Assembly (NCBI GenBank): GCA_039916625.1
Contig: JBDSKZ010000027.1
Span: 5,497-69,496, forward strand
Length of the DNA stretch: 64,000 nucleotides
Source of the DNA: Pedococcus sp.
Lineage (GTDB): Bacteria > Actinomycetota > Actinomycetes > Actinomycetales > Dermatophilaceae
Direction: 5' to 3'
How positions within the stretch are numbered: position 1 is the stretch's first letter; each line of letters starts with the position of its first letter. The translations under genes were made by a program, and so were the position numbers. The notes under the pieces were generated by a model that saw nothing but the letters and a program-made list of their open reading frames with translations, ran no database searches and had not been told where the DNA came from. Positions 25,760 to 58,756 of the stretch are shown here, in pieces.

Positions 25760-25859
25760 GACCCACCCGCTTCGCGAGAACAAATCCTTCCCTCCACGAA
25801 TCGGGACGCGAGGGCCATGATCACCCGTAATGTCCGCTCCGGCCCCGGGCCGTCGACGG

Positions 25860-34664: not shown

Positions 34665-37600
34665 TCACGTGGTGGTCGTGGTCGCCGTGACCCGTTGTCC
34701 CTCCGGGCTGAGCACCGTCACGGAGATGCGCAGCACCCCGGTGAGCGGGATGAACGCCTCGTACGGCGGGGGTGCGTTCGGTCCCCGGCGCAGCCGGTTG
34801 CGCACGAGGACGATCTCCCCCGTCCTGGGTAGCCCGCCGGACGCCCACGGGATCTCGTCGAAGGGGAACGACCCGGTCAGGGTGCGAACCCTGGGCGGGA
34901 ACGGACCGAGGGGCGGGAACGGACCTCCGCGGCGGAACGCCCCGCTGCCAGCACGCACGAACCCACCTCCGCCATCAGGGTCGAGCACTCCCGGGAACCG
35001 CCCCGCTCGTTCGGGCAGCACGATGGGCCCGGCGAGGCGCTGTGCTGCGACGACCTCGAGGACGTACGGCGGACGGCGCCGGGCGCTGGCGTTGGTCCAG
35101 ATGCCGACGTGGACGCCTCGACCCGCGATGGCGAACACGTCGACGAGGGAGACCGACACGTCCGGTGCCGGCTCGACCCAACCGGGCACGGTGAGCTCAC
35201 GAACCACCTCGCGGCCGAAGGGGTCGACCAGGCGCACCCTGACATCGACGGGGTCGGCCGCGACCGGCCGGGTGAACCACAGGGCGAGCGGCGACCGCCC
35301 GGCCACCCGGGCCCCCTGCTCGATGACCGGGGCGGTGGCCGCTCCTGCAGGAGGCGTGGCCAAGGGTGTCACCGGGACGTCCGGAAGGGTGACGACCGCG
35401 ATGTCGTCGGCGCCGACCTTCCCGTCCAGGCGGTGCACCCCTGCGGGCAGCACCCGTGGCGGAGCGGTCGTGGTGGAGCGCACCACGACCGCGCGGTGGT
35501 CCCCCCCACCGACCTCGGCCGTCAGCGGCTCGAGCTCCGGCGCACCGGGGGGGACGGTGACGGCGACGACGTCCGACGCTGCCGACGGCAGCCCGCGCTC
35601 GCCCTGCGCCGGGACGGTGTCGACCGGCACGGCGACCGAGCGCAGCAACCAGGGGTCCCAGCGGCTCGGCAGGGCGCCCGTCCAGGTGCTCGAATAGATG
35701 GGCTGCCCGAGGACGGGGTCGACGTCTGTCGGTGACGGAACAGCGGTGACCACCACGTCGGCGAACGCCGGTCCCATCGTCGACACATCGCGGGCTGCTT
35801 CGTCGGAGGTGGTGCGATACAACCGGAACCGTTGCACCGCGATGGGGCTCGCCGCATACAGACGGATGGTCACGGTGCCGTCAGCGGCCACGGACGGTCG
35901 CGCGAGCGGGGGGGACGGCCGGCGGAGCCTCGGTGCCATGGCCGCCTGGAAGTGCTCGTGCGGGGTGCCCGAGTCGGGCCACGGGCTCTCCACCCCGGAC
36001 TTGGTCATCGTGGTGACGAGGAACAGGTGGATGTCGGTCGACCCCTTGGGGAGGGTGGCGTCGTACGTCCGCACTGCGCCGCCGACCTCCTGGAACCGGC
36101 GGAAGGCCGCGCGGCGCTGGGTGGGGGTCATGGCGTCATACGCCGCGCGGAGGTCCACCAACCGCTGACCGGGGACGGCGGAGTCGGGGGCCTTCGGCGC
36201 GAGGCCCGCACGCTGGCGCAGCGAGGTCTCGTTGACCTCCCAGACGATGCAGGTGCGGACATCGGCGCCGGCGGGCAGCGACCACGCGACGCGCACGTGG
36301 CTGCAGCCCTGGGCGTCGAGGGTGCTGCCGAGCGGCACACCGGGCAGCGGCGGCGGGGGCAGCGGGACGACCGGCACCGGGCTCGCGGCGCTCGTGCGAG
36401 CGGGGTGCGGCTCGCCGGGCGACCACGGGGTCGGGGTGGCTCCCACGAGCAGGTGCCGTCGAGTCCATACCTGGACGCCCCACCTGCCGGTGCTGCCGAA
36501 GTCGAGGGTCGGCACGTCGGCGACCACGGCGTAACGTCGCCCACCGTTCCCCTGCGCCGGGCCGGGCACCGCGGTCGCGGTGCCGTCGGCCGACAGGGGA
36601 CGGACGGTGCAGCCGGACGGCACCGGGGCGTCGCCGGCGAACGCGAACCCGAGGTCACGCCGGAAGCAGCCCGCCGGGGTGACCGCGTCCGGGGACAGCC
36701 CAGCCGGCGGCGTCGCGGTCGGTGAGGACATCGGGAAGTAGATCGCCGCGATGTCGACCTGGGTCGGGGTGCGCTCCTGCCACTCGACGGCGACCTCGGC
36801 CTTGAGGGTGCCGGGGCAGGACGGCGAGCCGGAGTAGCGGGTGTCGAGGGCGACCGAGACGAGGCGGGTGGTCTGCGGCGCAGGTTCGTCGCCGATCCAC
36901 CCGACGTCCTGCCACGGCGACCAGATGCCGTGGAGGTCGCTGACGGCGACCGCGTAGCCCAGTCGACGGCCGCCGCCGCCGATGGCGATCTCCTGGCCAC
37001 CGTCGACGAGCGCGAGCCGGTTGTTGCCCGGCTCCCCCTGCGGCCCGTCGGGCGTGACGAGCAGGGGCCGGTCGCCGCCCGCGTCCCGAAGTGGCAGCAG
37101 CGAGACCGCTGGGCCGGCAGTCATGAGGTCGAAGCGCGCCAGCGCCGACTCGGTGACCGGGGACGTGGCTGCGGCCTTGGGCACGCGGTCCCACGAGAGC
37201 CGCACCGACTCGCGCCACGGGGCATCCGGCGCGACCGGGCCCACCAGCCCGGCCCGCACGGAGGTCAGCCCCGTCGGGGTCGGCACGACGAGGTGCGGCT
37301 CCGGAGCCGGGGCGTAGGCAGCGAACTCGGCTCCGCCGCGCTCCGGTGGGGCGAGGCGGGAGTACTTCGCCGTGACGAGGAAGTCGCAGTGGCCGACCTG
37401 TACCTGCAGGTCGTCCATCTGCTCCATCGTGTAGCTCGCGCCGAACCCGCAGGCGAGGTTGAGGAACGGGTCGCTCAGGGCCGGCAGCAGGAGCATCGGC
37501 CAGGGCCCCGTGTCGGCGGTGGTGCCGAGCGAGGACCTGCGGCCGTCCTGCTGCGGCGGGTCGACCGAGCGCGGGCTGGTGACGGCGAACTGCTGGTACT

Positions 37601-38435
37601 CGCGGACACCGGCGTCGTAGAGCGGCGGGAGCTCGGGGAACAGGTCGCGTCGCACCTCCTCGACGAGGAGCTTGGGGTCCGGGGCCTGCCACAGCGGCGC
37701 GGCTCGACCGGCCTCGGTGACCGGCGCCCACCCCAGCGGCGGCCCACCGCGCACCAGTCGGTGGATCGCCGCATCCACCGGCGGCATCAACCGGTCGAGG
37801 GGCCCCTGGTCGGAGGTGTCGTACTCGAACCCGGCGAGCGGCTGGTCCACGGGCAGCCCGACGATCTCCAACGGCTCCCACGCGTCGTCGTCGACGATCC
37901 GCTCGAGCGGGTCGACCGAGACGCGGAGGTCGGTGCCGTTGACGACCCTGGCATAGGTCGCGCCGGAGGTGCGGACGGTGATGGTGACCGGGTCGGCGTT
38001 CACCGGGCGCAGCGACCCCGCGGCGACGACGTGGTCGGGGTCGTCTCCGGTGCGGAACAGCAGCACCGCGACCGGCTGGCCGGGGTCGATGGGACGGCAG
38101 GTGACCTGGACGCAGCCTGCCTCGGCCGGTCCCCACGTGACCAGGGGGACGGGGTCCGAGGAGACCGACGCCCGGGTGCGCTTCGGGGAGTCCTTGGGGC
38201 TTCGGGTCCAGACGGTGAACGCCCCGCGCGGCACGCCGAGTCCCGGCCCACAGGCCCAGCTGAGGTGGATGTCCAGGGAGCGCAGCTGGAGCTGGCGGTC
38301 GTCGAAAGCCGGCAGGCCGTCGACCTCGATGTGGTCCAGCTGGCGCAACAGGGCCCGCTGCCGGGCCGCGATGGTCCCCCAGGGCAGCCGGACGGCCTTC
38401 GCACGGAACAACGACGAGTCGGACCTGCGTGCCAT
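34665..38435 (-). CDS. giant hypothetical protein B (1256 aa), no recognisable family
   Basis: This is the only frame with normal composition; the other frames are Arg/Pro-rich. The ATG at 38435..38433 shares its A with the TGA of the upstream giant ORF (TGATG). It is preceded by GGGAGGAGGAG, embedded in the upstream gene's final WEEEL codons. I see no signal peptide, no TM segment and no catalytic motif. Several segments look like beta-sandwich domains (e.g. VRVAWSLPAGADVRTCIVWEV, VTIRLYAASPIAVQRFRLYRT). Confidence 0.75.
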   Translation of the reverse strand: MARRSDSSLFRAKAVRLPWGTIAARQRALLRQLDHIEVDGLPAFDDRQLQLRSLDIHLSWACGPGLGVPRGAFTVWTRSPKDSPKRTRASVSSDPVPLVTWGPAEAGCVQVTCRPIDPGQPVAVLLFRTGDDPDHVVAAGSLRPVNADPVTITVRTSGATYARVVNGTDLRVSVDPLERIVDDDAWEPLEIVGLPVDQPLAGFEYDTSDQGPLDRLMPPVDAAIHRLVRGGPPLGWAPVTEAGRAAPLWQAPDPKLLVEEVRRDLFPELPPLYDAGVREYQQFAVTSPRSVDPPQQDGRRSSLGTTADTGPWPMLLLPALSDPFLNLACGFGASYTMEQMDDLQVQVGHCDFLVTAKYSRLAPPERGGAEFAAYAPAPEPHLVVPTPTGLTSVRAGLVGPVAPDAPWRESVRLSWDRVPKAAATSPVTESALARFDLMTAGPAVSLLPLRDAGGDRPLLVTPDGPQGEPGNNRLALVDGGQEIAIGGGGRRLGYAVAVSDLHGIWSPWQDVGWIGDEPAPQTTRLVSVALDTRYSGSPSCPGTLKAEVAVEWQERTPTQVDIAAIYFPMSSPTATPPAGLSPDAVTPAGCFRRDLGFAFAGDAPVPSGCTVRPLSADGTATAVPGPAQGNGGRRYAVVADVPTLDFGSTGRWGVQVWTRRHLLVGATPTPWSPGEPHPARTSAASPVPVVPLPPPPLPGVPLGSTLDAQGCSHVRVAWSLPAGADVRTCIVWEVNETSLRQRAGLAPKAPDSAVPGQRLVDLRAAYDAMTPTQRRAAFRRFQEVGGAVRTYDATLPKGSTDIHLFLVTTMTKSGVESPWPDSGTPHEHFQAAMAPRLRRPSPPLARPSVAADGTVTIRLYAASPIAVQRFRLYRTTSDEAARDVSTMGPAFADVVVTAVPSPTDVDPVLGQPIYSSTWTGALPSRWDPWLLRSVAVPVDTVPAQGERGLPSAASDVVAVTVPPGAPELEPLTAEVGGGDHRAVVVRSTTTAPPRVLPAGVHRLDGKVGADDIAVVTLPDVPVTPLATPPAGAATAPVIEQGARVAGRSPLALWFTRPVAADPVDVRVRLVDPFGREVVRELTVPGWVEPAPDVSVSLVDVFAIAGRGVHVGIWTNASARRRPPYVLEVVAAQRLAGPIVLPERAGRFPGVLDPDGGGGFVRAGSGAFRRGGPFPPLGPFPPRVRTLTGSFPFDEIPWASGGLPRTGEIVLVRNRLRRGPNAPPPYEAFIPLTGVLRISVTVLSPEGQRVTATTTTT

Positions 38436-41400
38436 CAGAGCTCCTCCTCCCACGGTGCGCGTTGCAGCGGGACGTCCACGGCGACCGCGCGGCCCTCGGG
38501 TGCGTTGGCGAGGGCGTCCGCGGCGACGACGAGGTCCAGGGACACCCGCTTGCCACGTGCGCCCGCGTCGAGCAGGACGACGGCACGCCCGAGCCCGGGT
38601 CCGCGGATGATGCGGGTGATCCCGGCCGCAGGGAGCGAACCCGCTGGTGCCGCAGCGGTGCTCGCCTTCAGCGACAGCCAGTCCGTCGGTCGCGCGGCCC
38701 ACCAGTGGTGGGTCGGGTCGACCGAGTCGATGGGACCCTGCACCTTGGTCGGCATCAGCCGCGACCGCCACAGCGTCTCGCTGCACTCCACGACCAGGGC
38801 CAGGGGCTCCGGGAGGGTGTCCGTCGACCAGAGCACCTGGACGACGGGGGCGCCGGGGGTCTGCGGGACGGTGAGCCCGGCGGCCTGGAAGGCGGTGTCG
38901 AGCTGGTCACCGGTGGGCGCGTCAGGCAGGGCCGCGAGGGGGGCGACGGCGGGGACGACGGTATGGCGCCAGCGCGCCTCCCGCAGCAGGCCCGCCAGCT
39001 GCCCGACCGTGCCGAACGCACTGGTGGTGAAGCCGATCCGGTGGACGAGGGCCCGGGCGTCGGCCGGGGCGCCCTTGGGGACGGCATGGATGTCGATGAG
39101 GTAGTCGGTGAGGGGTTCGAGGTCGTAGGGGAGCTCGAGGACATCGTGGTGGGTGCGCTCGCCGGAGACGTCGATGCACTGCTGCCCCTGACCGAGCACC
39201 TCGACGACGGCCTCCTCCCACGGTGTCGCCACGGCCAGGCCCAGCGCCTCCTTGAGGAACACCCCGTCGACCACGAGGGGCACGGTGAAGGCACCGCCGG
39301 GAGCGCCTCCGCCGGGTGGCACCGGGTGCTTGCCCGACGCCGCGAGGACGATCACTCGCAGCTCCTTGCCGTAGGCGTCGAAGAGGGCGGAGACGTTCTG
39401 GGTGGCCAGGGCGATCCGGATCGGCTCGTCGCACAGCACCCCGACGTCGTCCATCCCGGGGGCAGAGGCGAGCAGCCACGGTGACAGGTCCTTGGGCGAC
39501 TCGTCGGCTCCATCGGCCCCGAACCGGTACGTGTCGGTGTGGCCGCCGTCCCAGCTGGGCGCGACCGTGGGCTCGGCGTCCTTCTTGACCGAGGCCGCCC
39601 GCCAGCTGACGGTGACGGTGTAGGCGCGACCGGGCACCAGCAGGGCGTGGTCGTCGGGGTCCTGCGCCAGTGCGGTGGAGATGGCCTCCTGCTCGCTCGT
39701 GACGACCGACGTGTCCCACTCCCACCGCGTCGCCTCGCTCGTGACCACACCCGTCATCGCGACCAGGTAGAACGCTGGAGGCTGCTGGTCCTTCGCGAAC
39801 CGCGCTGGTTCCCAACCGATCTCGATGGTGGCGACATCCACCAGGTCACGGGAGTCGACGAGGGCGAGCGCCTGCGGCCACGTGGCACGCGCCGCGACGC
39901 GCGCGGCGACCTGCCCGGCCCGGCACACGGGGTCGGCCCAGGGCCCGTCGCCGTCCATCCACGTCGCGGGCAGCGGGTTGTCGGGGCCGACCCGGTCCTG
40001 GAAGGTCAGGCCCCGCTGGTCGACCACCTGTCCCTTGGCGTCGAGCCAGCGCACCACGAGCCGCTCGGCGAAGACCTCCTCCGGGACGAGCAACAGCAGC
40101 GTCAGGTCGCCGGCGCCTCCTCCGGGCGTGACGCGCACGGTGTCGCGCAGGTCGCCAGGGGTGAACTTCAGCCGGTCCCATGCCTGCTTGACCCGCTCCA
40201 TGTCGGGCTCGGTGCCCCGCGGCGCCGGCTCGTCGGAGTCGAGGACGGGCGAGCGCAGGACCCGCCCCTCGCAGCCCAGCCCTACGACGGCTCCGCGACC
40301 CACGGCCATACCCGCTGCCAGCCCTGCGGCCGGCCCCACCGCTGCACCCACAGCCACGCTCAGCGCCGGGTCCCATCCCTGCGCCAGCCGCACGGCCTGC
40401 ACGTCGCCGAGGCTGGCGCCGTCGGCCAGGGCCGAGACGACCTCGTCCCAGGCGCGTTCGTCGCTGGCCGTGGTGCGGTGGGAGAAGGTCGAACCGGCCG
40501 TGGCGACCCACTGCTTGAGCGGGTTGGGCTGCGGCCGGGCCGGGCCGCGCTCGCAACAGCGGACCGCGTCGCCGATGACGACGGCGGGGCTGGTGCCCTG
40601 CAGGAGGTCGATGGCCGGGTCGTCGGTGCGCCAGGCCTCGGTGACGTCGCAGTCGGCGTGGACCGGGCGGGTGCGCAGCGTGTCCGGGGGGTCCGGCCAC
40701 GCGATGCCGGTGAGGTGCCAGCCGACGGTGCTCGGGCCGGGCGCCTTGTGGTCGAACGTCCAGAGCACCGGTGCCGGCGGCGCGGCCGGGTTGCAGACGG
40801 TCCCCCAGCGGTCGGTGACGCTCGTGGTCAGCGCCTCGCCGTAGGGCAGCGCGCGGCTGAACGGCGTGGGCAGCCAGTTGAGCAGCGCGAGCGCTGGTCC
40901 CGAGGACGGGTCGGCCGGTGAGGTCTGCTTCCACCACGAGCTCGGCGTCTTGCCGGTGGGCGGGGTCGGCTGGAGGTCACCGGTGAGGGTGACCGACGTG
41001 ATCTCGTAGGTCCACCAACGGTCCCCGAGCCGCACCCAAGGCCGCGCGCCGCTGTTGCCGAGCGGCGTACCCCCCATCACGGTGCCACCCAGGGACGGCG
41101 CGGTGTTGAAGAGCACGACCGGTATGGCGTCGAGCGGCACCGTGGGCGGAGCGCCGCTCACCCCGGTCCGGAGTGCGTCGGCGAGCTTGCCGTCGATGGC
41201 GCGCTCCCCGCCGGTACCCTCCACGAGGGCCGGTGAGCGGGAGACCAGGCTGACGCCGGCCACGAGCGGCGGCGGGGTGAGGGTCTCGCTCGGCTGGGTG
41301 CCGATGGTGAGCGAGACACAGCCCTTGACGCTGAAGAAGAAGAAGTCGACCTCGCCGCACACCTCGCCGTGGACGTAGGTGATGTCGGGGCTGGTCGGTG

Positions 41401-44400
41401 TCGTGCGCCCGACGAGCACATCGAGCTCGGCGCTGGCGCCGATGCTGATGATGAACAGCCGCAGCTCGCCGCGCACGTAGATCTTGCCGGCGAGGAAGAA
41501 CGGGTCGAAGCCCAGGATCGCGTCGAACCCACCCGCGACCTCGAGGTAGAGGCCGACCGCCTTGCTGCCCATCAGGACGCAGCTGATGTGGAAGCCGGTG
41601 GCGATCGCCATCCCCCCGGTGACGGGCGGCAGCACCGGGATGTTGATGCCGTTGCCGTGGACCATGAGGTAGCCACTGCCGCTGATGACGTCGAGCACCT
41701 CGATCGTCACGCGGTCCTCGTAGGAACCGAGGTCGACCAGCCAGTTCTGCGGGTTGCGGGTGTCGAAGAACGCGGTGACGGGCACCCGGATCTTGAGCAG
41801 GCTCTTGATCTCGTAGGCCGCGACGATGCCGAGGGTGATCGTTCCCCGGCCGAAGTCGATGTCGAGCACGGCGAGGAAGGTCGCGCTCTGGCTGGCGTCC
41901 TTGAGCACCGGCGGGAGCTTGAGGACGTCGGCCTTCATGACGAGCAGCAGCCGCGGCCCGGGCACCTCGATCAGCACGATGCCCTTGAGGTTGACGACGA
42001 ACCCACCGTCGACGGTGCCGAGCAGCATGCCCGCGGCGAAGGCATACGAGCCGGCGGTGTGGGTCCACCCGTCCGGGTGCATGACGTGGCCGCGCTCGAG
42101 CTGCGCCTGCAGCCAGTCGAGGGCGGGAACCGGGCGCGACGCGTACGGGGACTCGTCGCGGGCGTAGTTGATGCCCACCCCGCCGAGGAAGCCGTAGATG
42201 CCCAGTCCGGAGCTGCCGAGCAGGAGCGGGACGGGCAGCTCCACCTCGGCGCCGATGAGCACGCCGGTGACGCCGTTGCGCGTCTCGACGGCGAGGACCG
42301 CGCTCGCACGCAGGTTGATCGGGGTGACGGTGAGGTCGAAGTAGCCCTTGAACCCGAGGGGGGTGAACTCCAAGGATCCCCTGCCGTGCAACGTCCCGGG
42401 CACCTCGATGGAGGCAGCGAGCTTGGTCAGGCTGAGCTCGAACGGCCCGTCGATCCGTGCCCTGATGCGGACCGTCTCGACGGTGACGATGCCGAGGTCG
42501 AGGCCCAGGCCGACCTCGACCTCCATGTAGGTCGGGTTGTCGCGGCTCACGCGGAAGCCGAGGACGCGCAGCAGCTCGTCGAGCGGCGGGCTCGCGGTGA
42601 GGGCGCCCGCGGGGATGTCGAGGCTGTAGCCCCTGCTCGGGTCGAAGACCGGGACCGGCAGGTAGTCGACGTGCCCGGGGTTGGCGGGGTCGGGCGCGGT
42701 GTCCCACGAGGAGCGGACGCCGACCGCCTTGTAGCGCGTGGTGACCGGGTGCTCGGGGTTGACCCGCACGATGGTCAGGTCGAAGGTGAAGGTCACCTCG
42801 ATGTCGAGCAGGATGCTCACGGTCGTGCCGCGCGGGTCGACGGGCGCGGAGCCGTCGGGGGCGATCACGCCCTGGCTGACGACGAGCTCGCCGCCACGCA
42901 GGATGATCTTCTGGGTGTTGATGAGACTGCTGGCGCCCAGGGCGATGCTGCCGAGGGACACCAGTGCCCCGGCGGCCGGCGACAGCTCGGCTGCAGCGGA
43001 GCTGAGGGGCGCGAGGATGCTGAGCGCGCCGAGCACGTTGAGGGCGTTCGGGTTGGAGTGCGCGAGGTCCATCTGGGCCAGGCCGTCGAGGTCGGACTCT
43101 GCGGCCCGGAACTCGGCGCTGACCAGCCACGAGTCGCGGTCCTCGGCGATCCTCAGCCGCACGAGGAAGGTGCAGATGCCATCGCCCGCGTTGCGGGTGC
43201 CCTGTCGTAGTGCGGGCTGGGAGTGCCGACGCAGCGCGGTCTCCGCTGCGGTCTCGATGTCGAACTCGCCGTACACCTCGGCCCGGATGAAGGTGCTGCG
43301 CAGCAGCTCGACTCGGACCCCGATCTTGCGGAAGCAGTCCGGCCTGCCGCCGGTCGGCGGAGTCCGGTCCACCTCCCTGGCGGGTGGTCGGACGACACGC
43401 TCGACCCGGGCGGTGATGGTCTCCTCGCCGTTGCCCGCGGTGGCGGCGCGGGCCCGCCACCACGCGCCACTGCCTGCGGCAGGCGGCGGGGACGTGCCCT
43501 CGACCGAGGTGGTCCGCGCCCTGGCCAGGCTGAACCCGTCGGCCGACCCCGCGGTGACGTTCGTGAAGCCCTTGCTGCGCAACAGGTCGACCATCACGTC
43601 GCGGCGGCGCTCGCTGAGCTTGCGGTTGTACTCCACGTCAGTCGGGGTGTCGTGTTGTGCGCCCTCCCAGGACGCGTAGCCCTTGACGGTCAGGGCCGCG
43701 CCCGCACCGATCTGCGCGATGACGGTTGGGGTCAGGGCCTGCGTGAGCGGCGGAGCGCCACTGCGTGTCGAGGGGCCGGAGGCCTGCCCCGAGCTGACGT
43801 TGGCGGGGCTCGTCGCCCAGGTGTGCAGGGCGCCGGAGAGGTTGGGGTTGAACGGGTCTGGTTGGGCGAACAGGTAGTAGGCGTCGATGACCTGGGGCTG
43901 GGTTGCCGGCAGCGTGGCAGTGACCTCCACCCGCGCGCCAGCCGCCACGGGTACCTCCGCCTCGGCGGACGGACCGGCCGACCCGCCCGCCCAGGACCAG
44001 TTGGCCGGGACCGGTGGGTCGGTGGTCAGCCGCACGTGTGTCGCTGTCTCCGACACCCTGCGGATCGCATGTGGCCTGGTGTTCGTCGGTGTCACGGTGA
44101 CCGTGGACCCGCCGCTGCCCGTGCCGCTCGGGTCGGTGCGCCGCATAGCGCTGAACGTGCGGGTGGTGGGGTTGCCGGCGCCGTCGGTCGCGGTGACCGT
44201 GATGGTCAGGCTGCCGGTGGCGGGGACGGTGAGCTCGACCCGGTCGTCGGTGGTGACCGTGCCGTCGATGTTGATGCCGATGGTGATCGGGGCAAGGCCG
44301 CCAGCGGTGTCGACGAAGAGGGTGGCGTGCTCGGGCACCTGGGCGGCCCCGGTGCCGGGGTCGCCGATCCACTCCCCCGACGCCGTCCGGAAGCTCACCG

Positions 44401-45223
44401 TCAGGGTCGGTGTCCCGCCCCGGTTGACCACCTCCGCCTCGAAGATGCCGGTGACGCCCGCATGGACACCCAGGCCGATCCACAGGTCGCGGACGCCGGC
44501 GCTGACGGCGACACCCTGCAGGCCGGTGGGGGCGACGAACAGGCGGGCCTCCGGGAGCCAGAACCCCTGCCAGTCGGCCGGCATCGCCCGCGCCTGCGCC
44601 GGGACACCCGGTCCCGCCGTCCCGGAGAGGTCGAGCACCGCGGTGCGGAAGGCGAAGCCGACCACGTCGGAGGGGCCGACGAGGGCGTGGGGCGGGTTCA
44701 TGGAGATGAGCTCGTAGATGTGTTCGACCGGGGTTCCACCGGTGGCTGCGGACAGGAGCTCGACGCCGACGGACCGGCCGCTCAGCTGCTTGGCCCGGAT
44801 CCGCAGCGCCGGCAGGGTGAAGGTCACCGGCAGGCCGTTGGCGTGCAGCTGCCCCTGTCCGTCGAGCTCCGCGCCGCGCAGGAACGGCAGGCGCACCAGG
44901 CAGATCGGCACGCCCAGGGTCACCCGCCAGCCGCCGTCCCCGACCCCACCCGTCTGGTGCAGCGCGAGCTCCACGCTGACGGTCGGGTCGGGGAACTCGA
45001 TGGGCGTCGTGCTCGTCGAGCCGCCGCTGCCGAACCCGCCCGAGCCCGGGTCCAGGGTGATGGGGCTCGGCCACGTCCCGCTGGCCGTGTAGACGTGCCA
45101 GGTGCCGTCGTCGTCGGTCTGCAGGCCGTCGTCGGTGGCGGCCAGTCCCTGGAGCAGGGGACGGACCTGGTCCAGCGCGCCGGAGTTCTGCACGCCCGAG
45201 GGGAGCTCGTCCCACAGCGACAC
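38435..45223 (-). CDS. giant hypothetical protein A (~2262 aa) with an internal OmpA/MotB-like peptidoglycan-binding module
   Basis: The frame stays open for 6.8 kb with normal composition. I chose GTG 45223 because GGGAGG lies about 7 nt upstream (revcomp of 45231..45236). The OmpA-like module reads AYYLFAQPDPFNPNLSG...VKGYASWEGAQHDTPTDVEYNRKLSERRRDVMVDLLRSKGF. The rest of the protein has no motif I can name. Confidence 0.75.
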   Translation of the reverse strand: MSLWDELPSGVQNSGALDQVRPLLQGLAATDDGLQTDDDGTWHVYTASGTWPSPITLDPGSGGFGSGGSTSTTPIEFPDPTVSVELALHQTGGVGDGGWRVTLGVPICLVRLPFLRGAELDGQGQLHANGLPVTFTLPALRIRAKQLSGRSVGVELLSAATGGTPVEHIYELISMNPPHALVGPSDVVGFAFRTAVLDLSGTAGPGVPAQARAMPADWQGFWLPEARLFVAPTGLQGVAVSAGVRDLWIGLGVHAGVTGIFEAEVVNRGGTPTLTVSFRTASGEWIGDPGTGAAQVPEHATLFVDTAGGLAPITIGINIDGTVTTDDRVELTVPATGSLTITVTATDGAGNPTTRTFSAMRRTDPSGTGSGGSTVTVTPTNTRPHAIRRVSETATHVRLTTDPPVPANWSWAGGSAGPSAEAEVPVAAGARVEVTATLPATQPQVIDAYYLFAQPDPFNPNLSGALHTWATSPANVSSGQASGPSTRSGAPPLTQALTPTVIAQIGAGAALTVKGYASWEGAQHDTPTDVEYNRKLSERRRDVMVDLLRSKGFTNVTAGSADGFSLARARTTSVEGTSPPPAAGSGAWWRARAATAGNGEETITARVERVVRPPAREVDRTPPTGGRPDCFRKIGVRVELLRSTFIRAEVYGEFDIETAAETALRRHSQPALRQGTRNAGDGICTFLVRLRIAEDRDSWLVSAEFRAAESDLDGLAQMDLAHSNPNALNVLGALSILAPLSSAAAELSPAAGALVSLGSIALGASSLINTQKIILRGGELVVSQGVIAPDGSAPVDPRGTTVSILLDIEVTFTFDLTIVRVNPEHPVTTRYKAVGVRSSWDTAPDPANPGHVDYLPVPVFDPSRGYSLDIPAGALTASPPLDELLRVLGFRVSRDNPTYMEVEVGLGLDLGIVTVETVRIRARIDGPFELSLTKLAASIEVPGTLHGRGSLEFTPLGFKGYFDLTVTPINLRASAVLAVETRNGVTGVLIGAEVELPVPLLLGSSGLGIYGFLGGVGINYARDESPYASRPVPALDWLQAQLERGHVMHPDGWTHTAGSYAFAAGMLLGTVDGGFVVNLKGIVLIEVPGPRLLLVMKADVLKLPPVLKDASQSATFLAVLDIDFGRGTITLGIVAAYEIKSLLKIRVPVTAFFDTRNPQNWLVDLGSYEDRVTIEVLDVISGSGYLMVHGNGINIPVLPPVTGGMAIATGFHISCVLMGSKAVGLYLEVAGGFDAILGFDPFFLAGKIYVRGELRLFIISIGASAELDVLVGRTTPTSPDITYVHGEVCGEVDFFFFSVKGCVSLTIGTQPSETLTPPPLVAGVSLVSRSPALVEGTGGERAIDGKLADALRTGVSGAPPTVPLDAIPVVLFNTAPSLGGTVMGGTPLGNSGARPWVRLGDRWWTYEITSVTLTGDLQPTPPTGKTPSSWWKQTSPADPSSGPALALLNWLPTPFSRALPYGEALTTSVTDRWGTVCNPAAPPAPVLWTFDHKAPGPSTVGWHLTGIAWPDPPDTLRTRPVHADCDVTEAWRTDDPAIDLLQGTSPAVVIGDAVRCCERGPARPQPNPLKQWVATAGSTFSHRTTASDERAWDEVVSALADGASLGDVQAVRLAQGWDPALSVAVGAAVGPAAGLAAGMAVGRGAVVGLGCEGRVLRSPVLDSDEPAPRGTEPDMERVKQAWDRLKFTPGDLRDTVRVTPGGGAGDLTLLLLVPEEVFAERLVVRWLDAKGQVVDQRGLTFQDRVGPDNPLPATWMDGDGPWADPVCRAGQVAARVAARATWPQALALVDSRDLVDVATIEIGWEPARFAKDQQPPAFYLVAMTGVVTSEATRWEWDTSVVTSEQEAISTALAQDPDDHALLVPGRAYTVTVSWRAASVKKDAEPTVAPSWDGGHTDTYRFGADGADESPKDLSPWLLASAPGMDDVGVLCDEPIRIALATQNVSALFDAYGKELRVIVLAASGKHPVPPGGGAPGGAFTVPLVVDGVFLKEALGLAVATPWEEAVVEVLGQGQQCIDVSGERTHHDVLELPYDLEPLTDYLIDIHAVPKGAPADARALVHRIGFTTSAFGTVGQLAGLLREARWRHTVVPAVAPLAALPDAPTGDQLDTAFQAAGLTVPQTPGAPVVQVLWSTDTLPEPLALVVECSETLWRSRLMPTKVQGPIDSVDPTHHWWAARPTDWLSLKASTAAAPAGSLPAAGITRIIRGPGLGRAVVLLDAGARGKRVSLDLVVAADALANAPEGRAVAVDVPLQRAPWEEEL

Positions 45224-45544
45224 GGCACACCTCCCGGCACGGGTGCGGACACGACGACGGGCGCCCTGGCGGGACGTCCCAGAGTGGGTCGGCCGCAGGT
45301 GCCCCCTCGCAGCCAATCCCCAGCGAATACAAGCCAACGATGCTCGTTGCAGGTAACCAGCGCAGAGCATTCCCGGTCAACGACCTGTCACAGAGCCGCC
45401 ACCCTTGCCGCCACAAACATCGACAATCCAGACGCTCGTCCAGGCCGACCGCGCGGGGCGGATGTCGCGGATCGTCAGCGAACGCGTCCCCGCACCTGCT
45501 GTTGGTCGGGGCGGCGCGGGCTCTCCCGGGGGTCTGGGTCGCTC

Positions 45545-46015
45545 CTACCGGAGGTCGGCGCGGGCTCGGGACTCCACCGTGATGGTCACGGAGCCGCCCA
45601 GCGCGGTGAGCAGCCCACCCACCAGTGGCAGGTCGGCCTCCCCCATCAGACGGACCACTGCGGTCTGGCCGTCGGGACTGCCCGTGCCGGCCGTGACCGC
45701 CCACGAGTTCATGCCGACCGGCAGCGGACGCTCGGCGAGGTAGCGCCCTGCGGTGGCGGCAACAGTGGCATCGGTGACGGGGACGGCCCGGTCGATGCCG
45801 TCCTGGTAGGCGCCGAGGTCGAGGGAGTCCGCAGCATCGAGCGCTGCTCCGTCGGCGGCATCGAGCAGGCGCATCCGAGAGAGCTGTGCCGAGGTGACGG
45901 CGACCGTGCCGACGATAAGCAGGATGGCCACGATCGTGTAACCGAGGATGAGGATGCTGACCTGGCCCGCCTCACCTCGACGGGTCAGCGCGCGCCGCCA
46001 CGTGCTCACCGTCAT
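45545..46015 (-). CDS. TadG/Rv3654c-like pilus-assembly (pseudopilin-like) protein
   Basis: MTVSTWRRALTRRGEAGQVSILILGYTIVAILLIVGTVAVTSAQLSRMRLLDAADGAALDAA is the typical TadE/G-like N-terminal helix. The ATG at 46015 overlaps the upstream stop (ATGA). Confidence 0.6.
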   Translation of the reverse strand: MTVSTWRRALTRRGEAGQVSILILGYTIVAILLIVGTVAVTSAQLSRMRLLDAADGAALDAADSLDLGAYQDGIDRAVPVTDATVAATAGRYLAERPLPVGMNSWAVTAGTGSPDGQTAVVRLMGEADLPLVGGLLTALGGSVTITVESRARADLR

Positions 46016-46479
46016 GGCCGGGCCCGGAAGCGGTCGACGACGGCGACATGGCTCGCGGACACGGGCACCTCGAGGGGCACCAGGTCGCGGGCGAACGCCG
46101 GGACGAACGGCAGGGGCACCGTCACGGTCGCCACGACCTCGATCCTGCCCTCGGGTCGCAGACACGGGGTCCCGTCGCAGCCCAGGGTGAGCGCTCCCTG
46201 ACCACCTCCGAAACCCTGGTCCTCGAAGGCGATCCCCGCCGCGGCCATCGCCCGGGGCTCGGCGGACTCCTCCGAGGGCGCCGTGACGAAGACCCGGGCG
46301 GCTTCGCGCGCGGCGGCCGAAGCGGCATACGCCCCCGCCTGCAGGCGGGCCATGGTCATCACGAGGTAGATCAGCGGCACGAGCATGAGGACGCCCAGGA
46401 CGATGAACTCGACCACGGCGCTGCCGCGCTCGTCATGACGGTGGGGGCGGGCCCAGCACCTGCGGACCCCGAGGATCAC
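46012..46479 (-). CDS. TadE-family minor pilin-like protein
   Basis: DERGSAVVEFIVLGVLMLVPLIYLV is the TadE N-terminal motif. The GTG start overlaps the upstream stop (GTGA). Confidence 0.7.
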   Translation of the reverse strand: MILGVRRCWARPHRHDERGSAVVEFIVLGVLMLVPLIYLVMTMARLQAGAYAASAAAREAARVFVTAPSEESAEPRAMAAAGIAFEDQGFGGGQGALTLGCDGTPCLRPEGRIEVVATVTVPLPFVPAFARDLVPLEVPVSASHVAVVDRFRARP

Positions 46480-46880
46480 TGCGACTCCAGGAACGCACGA
46501 CCGACCACGTCCACGCTGCGGTCGGGTCCGAGTGGCCCGAGCACCGGCAGCGGCGCCAACACCCGGACGGACACGACCTGGACGCCACCGGCCTCCGCTG
46601 TGCTCACGCTGACGTGCCCTGCGAAGCGTGCCGACAGCGATGCCGTGATGAGGTCCCGGGTGCGCTGGGCGCCGTCCTCGGGCTCAGCCCCGGCACGCGC
46701 TCCCCACCTGGCGCCCTCGGAGGCGCAGGAGATGAGGGTGTTGCGGATGTGCAGCGCCAGACCGAGCTGGAAGACCGCGACGAACAGCAGGGTGACGAGC
46801 GCGGAGACCATGGCGAAGTCGGCCACGGCAGCCCCCGACTCACGTCCTCCGCGGTCCCCCAGCCCCCTGCACGTCGGCAT
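46476..46880 (-). CDS. TadE-family minor pilin-like protein
   Basis: RESGAAVADFAMVSALVTLLFVAVFQLGLALH is a TadE-like N-terminus. Confidence 0.65.
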   Translation of the reverse strand: MPTCRGLGDRGGRESGAAVADFAMVSALVTLLFVAVFQLGLALHIRNTLISCASEGARWGARAGAEPEDGAQRTRDLITASLSARFAGHVSVSTAEAGGVQVVSVRVLAPLPVLGPLGPDRSVDVVGRAFLESQ

Positions 46881-46883
46881 CGG

Positions 46884-47084
46884 TCAGGGGCCGGAGACGG
46901 TGTTCATCGCGCGGCTGAACAGGGCGCGGAGCTGGTCGTCGGCCACGGTCCAGAGCACAGCCACCAGCCCGGCGGTCATGAGGGTGATCATCACCCAGCC
47001 CGGCACGTCGCCGCGTTCGCCGCGACGCACAGCGCCGTGGAGCGCCCACTGGGCACGGGTCAACGCCTTGGTGAGGACGGTCAT
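46884..47084 (-). CDS. small Flp/DUF4244-like pilin-like protein (66 aa)
   Basis: MTVLTKALTRAQWALHGAVRRGERGDVPGWVMITLMTAGLVAVLWTV has a charged leader followed by a hydrophobic helix. The ATG at 47084 has GAAAGG upstream. It occupies the position between tadC and tadE that flp occupies in the actinobacterial tad loci I recall. Confidence 0.5.
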   Translation of the reverse strand: MTVLTKALTRAQWALHGAVRRGERGDVPGWVMITLMTAGLVAVLWTVADDQLRALFSRAMNTVSGP

Positions 47085-47106
47085 GGGTCTACCTTTCGTC
47101 GAGCCA

Positions 47107-48060
47107 TCAGATGGAGAACCGCAGGAACGAGAAGCCGGGGTAGATCGCAAAGAGCACCGTGACGGGCAGGACGAGGAAGACGACGGGCACCATCATCGCG
47201 ATCTCCTTCTTGCCGCCGGCCTCCATCACCGCCCGCCTCCCGGTCTCCCGGACGTCCTGGGCCTGAGCCCTCAGGACGTCAGCCAAGGGGGTGCCCCGCT
47301 CGACGGCGATGATCATGCCGTCGACGAACCGGGACAGGCTGACCAAACCGGTGCGGTCGGCCAGGCCCTGCAGCGCGGTGGGAAGGTTCGCACCAGCGCG
47401 CGCGTCGGCGAGGCAACGGCCGAGCTCGTGCGAGAGCTCGCCGTTCGAGAGGCGGCAGACCCGCTCGAGCGCACCTACGGCGCCCTCCCCCGCGCCGACG
47501 GCCAGGGCGAGCAGCTCCGCGATGGTGGGGAACTCGGCGAGCATGCGTTCCTCGCGCCGGTTCGCCGCACGGCTGAGCCACTGGTCGCGAGCCACCACCC
47601 CGACGCCGGCCCCGCACAGCGTCACGATGACCGCGGGCCCGACCGACCCACCGTTGCCGAGGAACAGGCTGACACCGAGTGCCAGGCCGACGACGAGGCC
47701 GACCGCCCCCCAGAGCACCTGCTCGGCCCGGAACCGCTCCACGTCAGCCGGCCTGCCGGCGCGCACCAACCGGCGCCGCACCGAGGCGGAGCCACCGAGC
47801 ACGCGTTCGATGCGCCCTGCGAGGTCGGCCACCAGGGGGCGGGCGAGCACGCCGAGAGCCCCGGCTCCGGCGACCTGCCTACCGGCGAGGAGCCGCGACG
47901 GGCGAGGGGTGTCACGCAGGTAGGGCAGCACCCGGTCCTCGAGGGTGGCGCGTCGGCTGCGCGGCAGGCCCGCCCAGGCCAGCAGCAGGCCGACTCCCAG
48001 AGTGAAGCCGATGGCGGCCCCGGGGAGCGACATCCCGACCTGTGCGCCCAGGATCGTCAT
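47107..48060 (-). CDS. tadC: type II secretion system F-family protein TadC
   Basis: The T2SSF-like core reads ELLALAVGAGEGAVGALERV...LADRTG...FVDGMIIAVERGTPLADVLRAQA and ends in C-terminal TM helices. The ATG at 48060 overlaps the tadB stop (ATGA). Confidence 0.75.
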   Translation of the reverse strand: MTILGAQVGMSLPGAAIGFTLGVGLLLAWAGLPRSRRATLEDRVLPYLRDTPRPSRLLAGRQVAGAGALGVLARPLVADLAGRIERVLGGSASVRRRLVRAGRPADVERFRAEQVLWGAVGLVVGLALGVSLFLGNGGSVGPAVIVTLCGAGVGVVARDQWLSRAANRREERMLAEFPTIAELLALAVGAGEGAVGALERVCRLSNGELSHELGRCLADARAGANLPTALQGLADRTGLVSLSRFVDGMIIAVERGTPLADVLRAQAQDVRETGRRAVMEAGGKKEIAMMVPVVFLVLPVTVLFAIYPGFSFLRFSI

Positions 48061-48968
48061 CGCAGCACCCGCTCGTCCTCGGGCAGTCGACCGATGTGGA
48101 TCATGATCCGGTAGGCAGCGACCGAGATCGCGGCACCGACGAGCAGGACGACGGTGCCGGTCGGGCTGGCGTAGGCACGGATCGACTCGGGTCGGGTGCA
48201 CAGCATCGCCAGGACGATCCACGGCGCTGCCACCGCCAGCCGTGCGGCGTTGACGGTCCAACCCTGCCGGGTCTCGAGCTCGGCGCGCGTCCGGCTGTCC
48301 TCGCGAAGGAACGTCGACAAGGTCCGTAGGAGCCGACCGAGGTCGCTGCCGCCGACCTCGCGGGCAATCCGCAGCGACTCGACGAGCCGGTCGCCCACCG
48401 GGTCACTGAGACGCACCTTGAGCTGGTCCAGGCTGTCGTGGAAACGCCCCGTGGTGCGGTAGTCCTCCGCGAAGGCGCGGAAGGCGGGCCGTAGCTCCTC
48501 GGGACCGCGACGCCCCAGCTGGCTCAAGGCCTCCGGGAGGGCGAGCCCGGCGCGAACGGCTGACGCGATGTTGTCCACGGCGTCCGGCCACAGCTCGCGC
48601 AGGCTGGCCCGCCGGCGCCGGGCACGCATGCGCACCACACCCAGTGGCGCATACCCCGCCATGGCGGAGAAGCACAGCGCCACGGGGGCGACCCCTGTGG
48701 TCGCACCGACCAGTAGGGCGACCACGGTGAAGGCGATGACGCACGCACTCACCAGACTCCGGGGACCCACGGATTCGTAGCCGGCCTGCACGAGCTCATC
48801 GCGCAACCGGTCGCCCACCGTCACTCGCGGCGCAGCAGCCACTCGTGGCGCCGGGACCCACGCGGCCCACCAGACGCAGAACAGGCCACATCCCAACATC
48901 AGCCCGACCAGCGTGCCGGTGGCACTGCCCCCAACCGCGCCCAGCAGGTCCCGAAGCTCCCGCATCAC
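48057..48968 (-). CDS. tadB: type II secretion system F-family protein TadB
   Basis: The N-terminal TM is followed by LWPDAVDNIASAVRAGLALPEALSQL...FAEDYRTTGRFHDSLDQL and C-terminal TM helices. Confidence 0.75.
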   Translation of the reverse strand: MMRELRDLLGAVGGSATGTLVGLMLGCGLFCVWWAAWVPAPRVAAAPRVTVGDRLRDELVQAGYESVGPRSLVSACVIAFTVVALLVGATTGVAPVALCFSAMAGYAPLGVVRMRARRRRASLRELWPDAVDNIASAVRAGLALPEALSQLGRRGPEELRPAFRAFAEDYRTTGRFHDSLDQLKVRLSDPVGDRLVESLRIAREVGGSDLGRLLRTLSTFLREDSRTRAELETRQGWTVNAARLAVAAPWIVLAMLCTRPESIRAYASPTGTVVLLVGAAISVAAYRIMIHIGRLPEDERVLR

Positions 48969-48976
48969 ATCGCCCC

Positions 48977-50200: not shown

Positions 50201-50315
50201 CGCGACCTCCCCTCGACGTGTGTGCTGCTCGGCTCGCGGTGGCCCCCGCCGCAGGCGCGAGCCCGGTTTGTCTGCCGGATACTACGGCGAACCGTCCGTG
50301 CCCGTCCCGCTGAAT

Positions 50316-50327
50316 CCACAGCTGTGG
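50316..50327. promoter_or_regulatory. perfect 12-bp palindrome CCACAGCTGTGG in the tadA / FtsK-like divergent intergenic region
   Basis: Read directly from the sequence. It lies 45 nt upstream of the proposed ATG at 50372. It is an operator candidate only. Confidence 0.3.
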
Positions 50328-50371
50328 AAAACTGGCGGGCGCTGACGGCGCCGCCTCCTAGCGTCGAGCAG

Positions 50372-54790
<4,419 letters not shown>

Positions 54791-58036: not shown

Positions 58037-58756
58037 TCAGAGCACCGTGACGTCGTCACCCAGGGCGACGCGGCCGGGTGTGAGCACCTCGGCATAGACC
58101 CCGGCCGCGAGGTCGTGGTGGTCCGCGATCGCCTTGAGCAACCCGGGGCGTGCCGCCAGGTCCACCTGCGCGACGCTGACCATGCGGCAGCGCTCGGTCG
58201 GCTCGGTGACGCGCAGCCGCACCCGCCCGACGGCGATCTCGCGACCGACCCAGGACTCCTCCACGTAGGGCGAAGTGGTCTCGACGACGAGGTTGGCTCG
58301 CAGGTGACGAGGGTCGACCGGTCTGCCGTCGCCTTCGTGGCGCCCCAGCTCGGCGAGGGTGGCGGTACCGACGAGCGAGATCGGGGCGGCATCCTGGTGG
58401 GGTATGGCGCCCTCCCTCCGCAGCGTCACCGGCTCCCCGAAGTGGGCACCCAGGGCGTCGTCGGTGGCGGGTTCGCCTGCCACGAGCTCGGTGCCGTCGG
58501 GCAGGACGAGCCGCGTCTGCTCACCGGTGCGGCTCGCCACGAGCGTGAAGACCTGGTCCATGCGACGAAAGCGGCGCGAGTGCTTGCCGGTGGCGAGCTT
58601 GCCCGCCTCGTCGTAGACCGCCCACGCGCGGTCGCCGGCGACGCCGGTTGGTCCCAGGGCGAGGGTGGACAGCGACTGGCCGCCCGCCGCCTTCACGGGG
58701 AAGCAGCGCAGCGCGACGAGGCGCGGCGCAACGTCAGGAACGGACGGGGTCGTCAC
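58037..58756 (-). CDS. MOSC domain-containing protein
   Basis: LRCFPVKAAGGQSL is the MOSC_N beta-barrel. It is followed by RANLVVE...ESWVGREIAVGRVRLRVTEPTERCRMV. GTG 58756 overlaps the gdh stop (GTGA). Confidence 0.75.
   Translation of the reverse strand: MTTPSVPDVAPRLVALRCFPVKAAGGQSLSTLALGPTGVAGDRAWAVYDEAGKLATGKHSRRFRRMDQVFTLVASRTGEQTRLVLPDGTELVAGEPATDDALGAHFGEPVTLRREGAIPHQDAAPISLVGTATLAELGRHEGDGRPVDPRHLRANLVVETTSPYVEESWVGREIAVGRVRLRVTEPTERCRMVSVAQVDLAARPGLLKAIADHHDLAAGVYAEVLTPGRVALGDDVTVL

Follow-up and report, generated by a model that had tools for sequence, protein, structure and literature searches.

Tc toxins are built from giant subunits of about 2500 (TcA), 1500 (TcB) and 1000 (TcC) amino acids, which are released by a route that uses no signal peptide. 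Giant proteins are also collected in DUF6603 (PF20248), which is catalogued as a sequence family but is itself uncharacterised; neither name is mentioned in the literature that was searched, and keyword searches brought up nothing relevant. The present analysis concerns two adjacent giant genes, here called A and B, on a stretch of 64,000 nucleotides from Pedococcus sp. (GenBank assembly GCA_039916625.1, contig JBDSKZ010000027.1, positions 5,497 to 69,496 of the forward strand); the whole of this stretch is referred to as the window. Protein A is a divergent member of DUF6603, and the window holds one ordinary member among more than 100 orthologous pairs. Filing A under DUF6603 names the protein, but does not explain it.

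Comparison of these loci shows that A and B form a self-contained two-gene operon, inherited both vertically and horizontally, and that the pair is the invariant core of an accessory cassette, which is patchy in its distribution, is sometimes plasmid-borne or beside mobile elements, and varies in its third partner. Purifying selection has kept some 10.5 kb of coding sequence intact, from Actinomycetota to Acidobacteriota the junction between the two genes is nearly base-for-base the same, and even a haloarchaeon has remote homologs of A and B next to each other. Pfam (beyond the DUF itself), NCBIfam, PHROGs, PADLOC, PDB, BFVD and the literature were searched, and none of them tells the role of the cassette. 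As a system it is rated outside the described kinds, because it could be placed with none of the Tc toxins, the phage or contractile injection system (CIS) modules, the adhesins, the defence systems or the alpha-2-macroglobulins, and any function must be argued from sequence. Tentatively, A and B, together with a third giant protein C where one is present, may be an undescribed and ancient multi-protein machine of monoderms, diderms and haloarchaea that acts on cell envelopes.

The gene pair

The two genes overlap by a single base on the minus strand:

38435..45223, minus strand: gene A, encoding a giant protein of 2262 residues, a divergent member of the DUF6603 family; GTG start at 45223-45221, TGA stop at 38437-38435
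34665..38435, minus strand: gene B, encoding the partner protein of 1256 residues; ATG start at 38435-38433, stop codon ending at 34665

A preliminary description of this DNA, made from the letters alone, had proposed two giant reading frames of 2262 and 1256 codons here, and the list of open reading frames (ORFs), the codon-position bias, the homologs and the substitution rates all agree with it. The longest ORF readings on the minus strand are 38435-45370 and 34665-38786. The genome is about 71% GC, and the GC content at third codon positions (GC3) shows the bias of real genes, at 0.93 for A and 0.87 for B. An identical protein A is encoded on an independent metagenome contig, where the gene callers give the same two products. 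Protein A has 123 homologs, nearly all of 2230-2290 amino acids and colinear across 100% of the length, with 84-92% identity in Pedococcus and Phycicoccus and about 50% in Microbacterium, Cellulomonas, Kribbella, Jiangella and Pseudarthrobacter. Protein B has 75 full-length homologs of 1200-1300 amino acids, all labelled 'hypothetical' and none with a Pfam domain. Conservation and the ratio of nonsynonymous to synonymous substitution (dN/dS) had been suggested as a check on the frames; the frames are intact in relatives, and dN/dS against the closest of these is 0.11-0.14 for A and B (0.12-0.14 for gene B), indicating purifying selection. Spurious ORFs in high-GC DNA are ruled out by GC3, the full-length homologs and dN/dS, and A and B are confirmed as real, intact genes under purifying selection.

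The A/B junction and the upstream block

Three short elements bear on the expression of the pair:

45230..45235, minus strand: Shine-Dalgarno (SD) sequence of gene A, GGGAGG, 6 nt before the GTG and kept in an alignment of close relatives
38433..38455, minus strand: A/B junction, where the A codons for P-W-E-E-E-L hold the SD of B and are followed by a TGATG stop/start overlap
45224..45400, minus strand: upstream block of A, conserved among near relatives, with a TTGACC hexamer resembling a -35 element at 45380-45375

The translational signals can be read in the sequence as they had first been described, with GGGAGG ahead of the GTG at 45223, and the start of B overlapping the TGA of A behind an SD set in the WEEEL codons. 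That second SD, GGGAGGAGGAG (38451-38441), lies within the last codons of A, and in TGATG the ATG of B and the TGA of A have one A in common. The one-base stop/start overlap is found in 69 of 72 related loci (67 with TGATG and 2 with TAATG), and across these loci the codons that spell a conserved P-W-E-(V/E)-E-(D/L) at the C-terminus of A contain GGGAGG. Because the overlap and the internal SD are kept throughout the family, tight co-expression of A and B appears to be a selected feature. The obvious reading of the arrangement is termination-reinitiation coupling, in which ribosomes ending A would stop on the start codon of B. The original proposal of tight, roughly stoichiometric co-expression stands as far as the coupling arrangement goes, whereas an equal, 1:1 stoichiometry of A and B is a suggestion drawn from it.

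The PWE tail is also present in homologs from Bacteroidota, Acidobacteriota and Myxococcota, and in 126 of 165 long members of the superfamily. Since it is kept in such distant phyla, the tail is constrained at the protein level besides its SD role in Actinomycetota. The C-terminal A-P-W-E motif is thus a feature of the protein, and possibly a docking peptide for B.

The upstream block, of about 170 nt, is common to five Pedococcus/Phycicoccus-like loci (L005, L006, L008, L012 and L019) and is not conserved in other genera; in L006 and L012 it is present although the sequence farther upstream diverges. It probably serves as the cassette's own promoter and 5' leader. A consensus scan gave no sigma-70 promoter match, and the block has no Rfam match. 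Searches for regulatory RNA, terminators, tRNA genes and flanking repeats that would mark an island gave nothing significant.

Protein A

Protein A was subdivided by its conservation profile and by indel hot spots:

44369..45223, minus strand: residues 1-285, N-terminal domain conserved across phyla, with no signal peptide
43724..44368, minus strand: residues ~286-500, variable region with candidate Ig-like beta-sandwich domains
43424..43711, minus strand: residues ~505-600, OmpA-like domain of the peptidoglycan-binding type, with the motif GYASWEG...N-x-x-LSERRR
40544..43351, minus strand: residues ~625-1560, beta-rich core, predicted as a hairpin meander with one aliphatic and one charged face
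42929..43051, minus strand: residues ~725-765, conserved hydrophobic segment rich in Ala, Gly and Leu, with three short helices in the model
41024-42616, minus strand: residues ~870-1400, DUF6603-homologous segment, mapped by homology
38438..40543, minus strand: residues 1561-2262, variable linker (~1561-1650), then a conserved C-terminal region ending in the PWE tail

The family assignment comes from the central segment. Protein A itself has no Pfam match to DUF6603 at E <= 0.1, nor at E <= 1, and stays below the 27-bit gathering score, but four homologs that are 50-55% identical to it over the full length (P0065, P0074, P0086 and P0037) pass that cut-off at 46-49 bits (E ~1e-12), the matches lying at their residues ~885-1140; residues 870-1400 of A in turn match P0074 at E = 1e-217. 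Since full-length homologs of 50% identity pass the DUF6603 cut-off, A is a divergent member of the family, although its homologs, in their best stretch, match no more than roughly the first half of the model's 502 positions. Many of them were already annotated with PF20248, or carry the names 'DUF6603 domain-containing' or 'OmpA-like domain-containing' in NCBI and UniRef. A DUF6603 match for the central part of A had been raised as a question in the preliminary description, and the homologs answer it for residues ~870-1400. The accompanying claim that neither protein has a recognisable family holds for B and for A itself in Pfam, but gives way for A once its homologs join it to DUF6603. Because DUF6603 is uncharacterised, this kinship does not amount to homology with a characterised family. 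Neither A nor B has a match in Pfam, PHROGs, PADLOC or PDB sequences, and NCBIfam offers only a sub-threshold OmpL47-type barrel for A.

Residues 1-285 have no match in Pfam, in NCBIfam or in searches of the family profile against PDB. The weak matches of residues ~286-500 are to the NCBIfam OmpL47-type barrel (E = 0.02, 15 bits against a 40-bit cut-off), to Pfam Big_9 (E = 0.27) and, with a broad profile, to an Ig-like domain of a phage decoration protein (E = 0.026). This region is probably made up of Ig-like beta-sandwich domains.

The OmpA-like stretch that had been noticed in the letters was recovered by profile searches against PDB. A narrow family profile finds 6u83 at E = 0.003, and a cross-phylum profile finds RmpM (1r1m) at E = 1.3e-4 over about 120 residues, and also YfiB, Pal and OprF. 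N533, L536, S537, R539 and R540 are invariant; the Pfam model of the OmpA domain (PF00691; PROSITE PS51123) gives sub-threshold matches only, and only in some distant members of the A family. The profile matches indicate a real OmpA-like domain in A. In structures of Pal and OmpA, the Asp of GH-T/A-D and the Arg of LS-x-R-R contact the ligand.

Domains of this kind normally tether proteins to the producer's own peptidoglycan, as in Pal, RmpM, YfiB and OprF, and A and B could be a structural scaffold on that envelope, serving as a surface layer, a spacer or a means of aggregation rather than as a weapon, and anchored via the OmpA-like domain. Such a role would suit the FN3 arrays of B, which are typical of surface and S-layer-like proteins (EA1, SiiE and PrgB are among the Foldseek matches of B, and SlpA among those of the A core), as well as the strong purifying selection over the full length and the position of most actinobacterial loci among core metabolic genes, many carriers being floc or soil organisms. 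This explanation is nevertheless rather doubtful, as no lineage examined has a signal peptide, lipobox, Tat motif or conserved LPXTG, the presence of relatives in about 0.07% of species genomes fits an accessory trait, and some of the copies have mobile elements beside them or are megaplasmid-borne.

The core was modelled with AlphaFold2 over residues 600-1560, using 34 sequences. In the model, about 25-30 long strands, each of 10-17 residues, are joined by very short turns at either end into a tight hairpin meander. Almost all of the strands are two-faced: one side is aliphatic, with a mean Kyte-Doolittle value of about 3 and few aromatic residues, and the other is charged or polar. Foldseek comparison with PDB returned only large beta-barrels (PapC, FimD, LptD, SlpA and TonB-dependent receptors) and the beta-belt of ApoB100, the latter at ranks 4, 5, 12 and 30 with probabilities of 0.2-0.44 and a TM score of about 0.1. 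Because TM is 0.1-0.3 and the rmsd 18-45 A over these matches, the likeness is one of strand pattern, not of fold. The hydrophobic stretches of A, with Kyte-Doolittle maxima of 1.6-1.8 (1.6-1.74 for residues ~725-765), are all too weak for clear transmembrane helices.

A core of this pattern, with very short turns and ApoB100 among its top matches, is also what would be expected if A were a bridge-like or belt-like lipid-binding protein, of the AsmA/TamB/VPS13 groove or ApoB belt type, with B as an accessory scaffold. The recurrence of phospholipase-D-type domains as partners in two distant branches (see below) points the same way. Set against these features are the low probabilities and TM of the ApoB matches and the monoderm hosts, which have no periplasm to bridge. 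Moreover, A has no Pfam match to AsmA, TamB or DUF490 and no N-terminal membrane anchor, and no AsmA-like protein is among the top 50 Foldseek matches of the model, whose pTM is 0.44. A lipid bridge is rated as unlikely.

Cys1289 and Cys1302 lie on adjacent core strands and are lost together in three homologs, and Cys1289, 1302, 1477 and 2016 are invariant across phyla; the cross-strand pair and the four invariant residues are a hint of an oxidising environment, that is, one outside the cell. The C-terminal region of A is kept in a shorter class of relatives of about 1750 residues. Profile-profile comparison with hhalign detects no homology between A and B.

Protein B

Three parts can be distinguished in B:

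37416..38435, minus strand: residues 1-340, N-terminal beta domains with a helical insert (219-328), the most conserved part of B
34986..37415, minus strand: residues 341-1150, FN3/Ig-like beta-sandwich array with a small helical insert at 736-777
34668..34985, minus strand: residues 1151-1256, poorly conserved Gly/Pro-rich C-terminal part, which holds LPRTG and ends in TATTTTT

An AlphaFold model of residues 1-1150, built with 62 sequences, is confident (pLDDT 88.8, pTM 0.59) and predicts about ten FN3/Ig-like beta-sandwich domains. Residues 1-340 reach a pLDDT of about 90 and contain the invariant positions W60, G67, P69, F73, V75, W186, E190, G193, P195, Q210 and G211. Foldseek comparison with PDB and BFVD finds only proteins with multiple FN3, Ig or MG domains, at E values down to 1e-15 and TM of 0.08-0.2. 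They include complement C4 and C3, A2ML1, LAR, the lambda gpJ tip and the T5 and T1 tail tips, together with actinophage minor tail proteins, giant-virus FN3 proteins, EA1 of an S-layer, SiiE and PrgB. The string of beta-sandwich domains that had been suspected in B is therefore what the model and these matches show, and they show nothing more specific. When 32 B homologs were scanned singly against Pfam, and the family profile against PDB, nothing was found. The TATTTTT tail that had been pointed out is present, but it is lineage-specific and not conserved.

The same fold class occurs in the tips of lambda (gpJ), T5 and T1 and in minor tail proteins of Gordonia, Microbacterium and Streptomyces phages, and tail proteins, like A and B, never carry signal peptides. 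The cassette might then derive from a baseplate or tail-tip module of a phage tail or a contractile injection system, or be a free-standing remnant of one, with A and B as tail-like proteins that bind receptors or penetrate walls and now work without a tail, and a locus in Haloferax lends this some colour, since the second gene there is a B homolog and the third encodes a Baseplate_J domain (E = 2e-12). Several results make this derivation unlikely. Relatives are absent from PHROGs, tblastn of A and B against 50,697 phage genomes brought up nothing, and among 2.9 million IMG/VR contigs there is no relative of A. The copies examined have no sheath, tube, gp25, tape-measure, baseplate or capsid gene near them, apart from the Haloferax Baseplate_J gene; that gene was seen in one archaeal locus only and is not homologous to B or C. 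The Foldseek likeness itself is of the generic FN3 kind. A phage or prophage origin of the pair was rejected on the phage-genome and IMG/VR results.

Motif and signal searches

A motif scan agrees with the earlier statement that the pair has no catalytic motif, P-loop, Rhs/YD repeat or RTX repeat: no P-loop, HExxH, HKD, CxEQ or RTX motif and no array of YD repeats was found in A or B, a single YD dipeptide in A apart. Pfam, NCBIfam and the motif scan likewise reveal no nuclease, NTPase, protease or sensor domain across the 3500 residues of A and B.

Neither protein has a signal peptide, their N-termini being charged and without a hydrophobic core, and the same holds for the N-termini of A, B and C examined from monoderms, diderms and an archaeon. 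No lipobox, Tat motif or conserved LPXTG was found in any lineage examined. The first reading of A and B as lacking a signal peptide and a sorting anchor is borne out by these charged N-termini and by the want of a conserved LPXTG or membrane anchor, and neither protein has the features of a Sec- or Tat-exported or sortase-anchored adhesin. Taken literally, the accompanying statement that there is no LPXTG was wrong, as LPRTG stands at residue 1202 of B. It is a chance match, because only 2 of the 67 family members have it and the 50 residues after it are non-hydrophobic, with no membrane anchor, and anchoring of B through LPXTG was ruled out on its lack of conservation.

The wider family and the third gene

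The wider family was delimited by an exhaustive phmmer search with residues 870-1400 of A, which matched 921 representative clusters; for 243 of these the match reached E <= 1e-30. Most members have 2200-2600 amino acids, and the second class, of about 1750, has no Ig/OmpA head. Their amino-acid composition ranges from high-GC-like to low-GC-like, and the order of OmpA-like domain and then core is the same across phyla. Named members come from Planctomycetota, Verrucomicrobiota, Bacteroidota (Niabella, Ferruginibacter), Acidobacteriota (Edaphobacter, Bryobacterales), Myxococcota (Nannocystis) and Streptomyces, and distant versions are found in Pseudomonadota and Haloferax as well.

In most phyla outside Actinomycetota the cassette usually has a third giant gene. 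Five loci, from Niabella, Edaphobacter, Nannocystis, Streptomyces and Bryobacterales (L083, L084, L085, L086 and L093), carry three abutting or overlapping giant genes, with A of 2370-2500, B of 1070-1210 and C of 1040-1130 amino acids. The Edaphobacter B is 29% identical to the B of the window over residues 1-1115 (E = 2e-76), and so is a true B homolog. Protein C has no Pfam or PDB match; its last ~200 residues resemble a phospholipase D (PLD) protein of Mycetohabitans at E = 1.5e-7. A role for C as an active phospholipase toxin was ruled out by the weakness of this likeness, the loss of the His and Lys of the HKD motif, and the want of Pfam and PDB matches. A hidden third gene in the window was also excluded, as C-family proteins have no tblastn match there.

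Other third partners are found on large plasmids. On a Mycetohabitans megaplasmid, transposases flank genes for a hypothetical protein of 1322 residues, a true HKD phospholipase D (Pfam PLDc_2, E = 1e-16) and a DUF6603 protein, and the A-B pair is present on Paracoccus pAMI4. On pHME322 of Haloferax mediterranei (L090, 9661-22774) three overlapping genes encode a DUF6603-like protein of 1858 residues, a B homolog of 1370 residues (hhalign probability 96.8%) and the Baseplate_J protein of 1142 residues mentioned above. Apart from that Baseplate_J gene nothing hints at a connection with phage or CIS baseplates, and the product of the gene was discarded as a relative of B or C.

In Streptomyces sp. 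NPDC057280 (L086) a TIR-TPR gene (6163-8589) lies upstream of A-B-C and a TcA_TcB_BD gene (24552-27497) just downstream. This neighbourhood could be a toxin or conflict island, or a coincidence.

Distribution

Relatives of A are present in 138 of 185,579 species genomes, counted as one genome per species (~0.07%). In every one of 78 fetched loci with enough downstream sequence, B follows directly after A, and clustering of all flanking ORFs found no third recurrent gene family among the actinobacterial loci examined (L001-L082). An integrase, resolvase, transposase, ArdC or SSB gene adjoins the cassette in several genomes, toxin-antitoxin genes lie beside some copies, and copies in Rhizobium, Paracoccus, Mycetohabitans and Haloferax are megaplasmid-borne.

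A patchy, horizontally spread cassette with integrase, toxin-antitoxin and TIR-TPR genes beside some of its copies, and with no secretion signals, invites comparison with cytoplasmic anti-phage defence or some other intracellular conflict system. Neither A nor B, however, matches a defence model in PADLOC-DB, and most copies lie outside defence islands; an OmpA-like domain and FN3 arrays would be unexpected in cytoplasmic immunity proteins, and the 3500 residues offer none of the nuclease, NTPase, protease or sensor domains listed above. A defence role is quite improbable on this evidence.

Proposed function

The explanation put forward here, as a possibility that falls short of likely, is that A and B make up a stoichiometric complex that binds walls and membranes and is used in conflict, competition or adhesion. 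The two proteins would assemble in roughly equal amounts into one large beta-rich hetero-complex. Protein A would supply a cell-wall-binding head, composed of the Ig-like and OmpA-like domains, and, in the DUF6603 core, an amphipathic beta-sheet of very large size that buries a hydrophobic helical segment and could engage a membrane or lipid surface. Protein B would extend as a long arm, its ten or so FN3-like domains giving reach or serving for binding. Since no lineage examined has a secretion signal, the complex is supposed to be built in the cytoplasm and to leave the cell afterwards by release or non-classical export, in the manner of Tc toxins and tail-like particles. Its most likely job would be to bind the wall and to disturb or bridge the membrane, in microbial competition or in adhesion. 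A housekeeping role is unlikely.

A number of observations weigh against such an envelope-acting complex, in which complex formation, export, wall binding and toxicity are each postulated. Throughout the family, the Asp of the canonical GH(T/A)D in the OmpA-like domain is replaced by Ser (GYAS[YW]E), and since this is a ligand residue the binding of diaminopimelate is uncertain. The model of the A core is only moderately confident (pLDDT 70, pTM 0.44), its Foldseek matches are generic, at TM 0.17-0.30, and the homologs show no preference for even total cysteine counts. Neither the window nor the actinobacterial loci have lysis or secretion genes linked to the cassette, and most actinobacterial loci place the pair beside ordinary metabolic genes instead of mobile elements. 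Searched for by tblastn, gene C is missing from the window and from the actinobacterial A-B loci, the distant L004 apart, and the PLD-like domain of C lacks the catalytic His and Lys of HKD. A toxin payload is consequently not evident, because C has lost these residues and the actinobacterial version has no third gene.

Neighbouring genes in the window

In the window the A-B pair stands between an operon resembling Tad/Flp pilus operons, on the same strand, and a block of thiolase, MeaB, kinase and mutase genes. The pilus-like operon, at 45545-50200 on the minus strand, is directly upstream of A at a distance of about 320 nt:

48977-50200, minus strand: CpaF-like T2SSE ATPase
48057-48968 and 47107-48261, minus strand: two T2SSF membrane proteins, TadB/TadC-like
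46884-47150, minus strand: small pilin-like ORF
46476-46880 and 46012-46479, minus strand: two TadE-like genes
45545 to ~46015, minus strand: Tad/TadG-like gene

This position, shared with some 5-7 close relatives, is the ground for regarding A and B as accessory components of the pilus, such as a tip adhesin or anchor. The window's own neighbours of the pair are common only to those relatives, and co-location with a Tad locus is conserved nowhere else. Jiangella, Microbacterium and Gryllotalpicola have genes around the pair that are unrelated to those of the window, and no Tad gene is found in these or in any of the other genera. The pair has its own upstream block, which L006 and L012 also keep, and the Tad genes are separated from A by a weak terminator-like hairpin. 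Because no third gene recurs beside A-B in actinobacterial loci, the adjacency is best taken as coincidental, and because the neighbours vary, the upstream block belongs to the pair and the hairpin intervenes, A-B is considered an autonomous two-gene unit. A pilus-accessory role is contradicted by synteny and must be rated as very improbable.

Several other genes of the window were identified in passing. Divergent from the Tad-like operon, at 50222-54790 on the plus strand, is a gene for a protein of 1522 residues with FHA and FtsK/SpoIIIE ATPase domains, which resembles secretion-associated FtsK-like ATPases and is not kept beside A-B elsewhere. The ORF of 1643 codons at 58753-63684 (minus strand) encodes an ordinary enzyme, a large NAD-specific glutamate dehydrogenase (PDB 7a1d, E = 0), and 56475-57968 (minus strand) a PdtaS-type histidine kinase with GAF_PdtaS, PAS_4, HisKA_2 and HATPase_c domains. 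At 19922-21085 (minus strand) a PLD-like (PLDc_2) protein is encoded that appears to begin with a signal sequence and lacks the canonical HxK(x)4D motif; the PLD-like partners which DUF6603 cassettes have in other phyla are not related to it.

Comparison with known systems

The plainest kinship of A is with the DUF6603 proteins, which have the same giant size and the same order of OmpA-like domain followed by core. Its residues ~505-600 are like Pal, RmpM, the C-terminal domain of OprF, YfiB and MotB (E = 1.3e-4 to 0.01), with N-x-x-L-S-x-R-R invariant, but unlike the usual OmpA-like proteins A carries the domain embedded in a protein of 2262 residues that has no signal peptide. In its long antiparallel strands with one hydrophobic face, the core recalls the grooves of AsmA, TamB and YhdP, the ApoB100 belt, and PapC, LptD and Deinococcus SlpA. 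It differs from the large outer-membrane barrels and grooves in that A has no membrane anchor and most hosts of the window's subfamily have no outer membrane.

For B, the top three PDB matches in Foldseek are two entries of complement C4b and A2ML1 (E = 2e-12 to 9e-11), aligned over some 1100-1200 columns at TM 0.08-0.10, so that the likeness to the alpha-2-macroglobulin/complement proteins is confined to the shared beta-sandwich repeat. B has no CxEQ thioester motif, no large helical thioester domain and no lipoprotein signal. The long FN3 arrays and the missing signal peptides are features held in common with phage tail-tip, minor tail and CIS baseplate proteins, but unlike those modules the pair has no sequence relative in PHROGs, INPHARED or IMG/VR, and its fold matches are generic (TM <= 0.2).

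The Tc toxins offer a parallel in general plan. As in those toxins, two or three giant genes are adjacent (A of 2260-2500, B of 1070-1260 and C of 1040-1130 amino acids), signal peptides are missing, the distribution is patchy and the largest subunit has Ig-like binding domains, which in A are probable ones, and a TcA_TcB_BD gene adjoins the Streptomyces copy. Unlike TcA, which is largely helical, A has an all-beta core, and no hypervariable toxin tip was found; A, B, 32 B homologs, 20 diverse A homologs and C have no match to VRP1, TcA_TcB_BD, SpvB, RHS/YD or TcdB_toxin_mid. The question of function is directly testable, as the cultured carriers include Pedococcus (P. dokdonensis, for instance), Pseudarthrobacter (P. 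phenanthrenivorans), Microbacterium (M. sulfonylureivorans), Kribbella, Cellulomonas, Niabella, Edaphobacter, Rhizobium tropici (CIAT 899) and Haloferax mediterranei. If the cassette does encode an envelope-acting complex, it would offer a route to understanding how such complexes leave cells, and would stand alongside the Tc toxins and the tail-like injection systems as a new kind of large machine that is independent of secretion signals.

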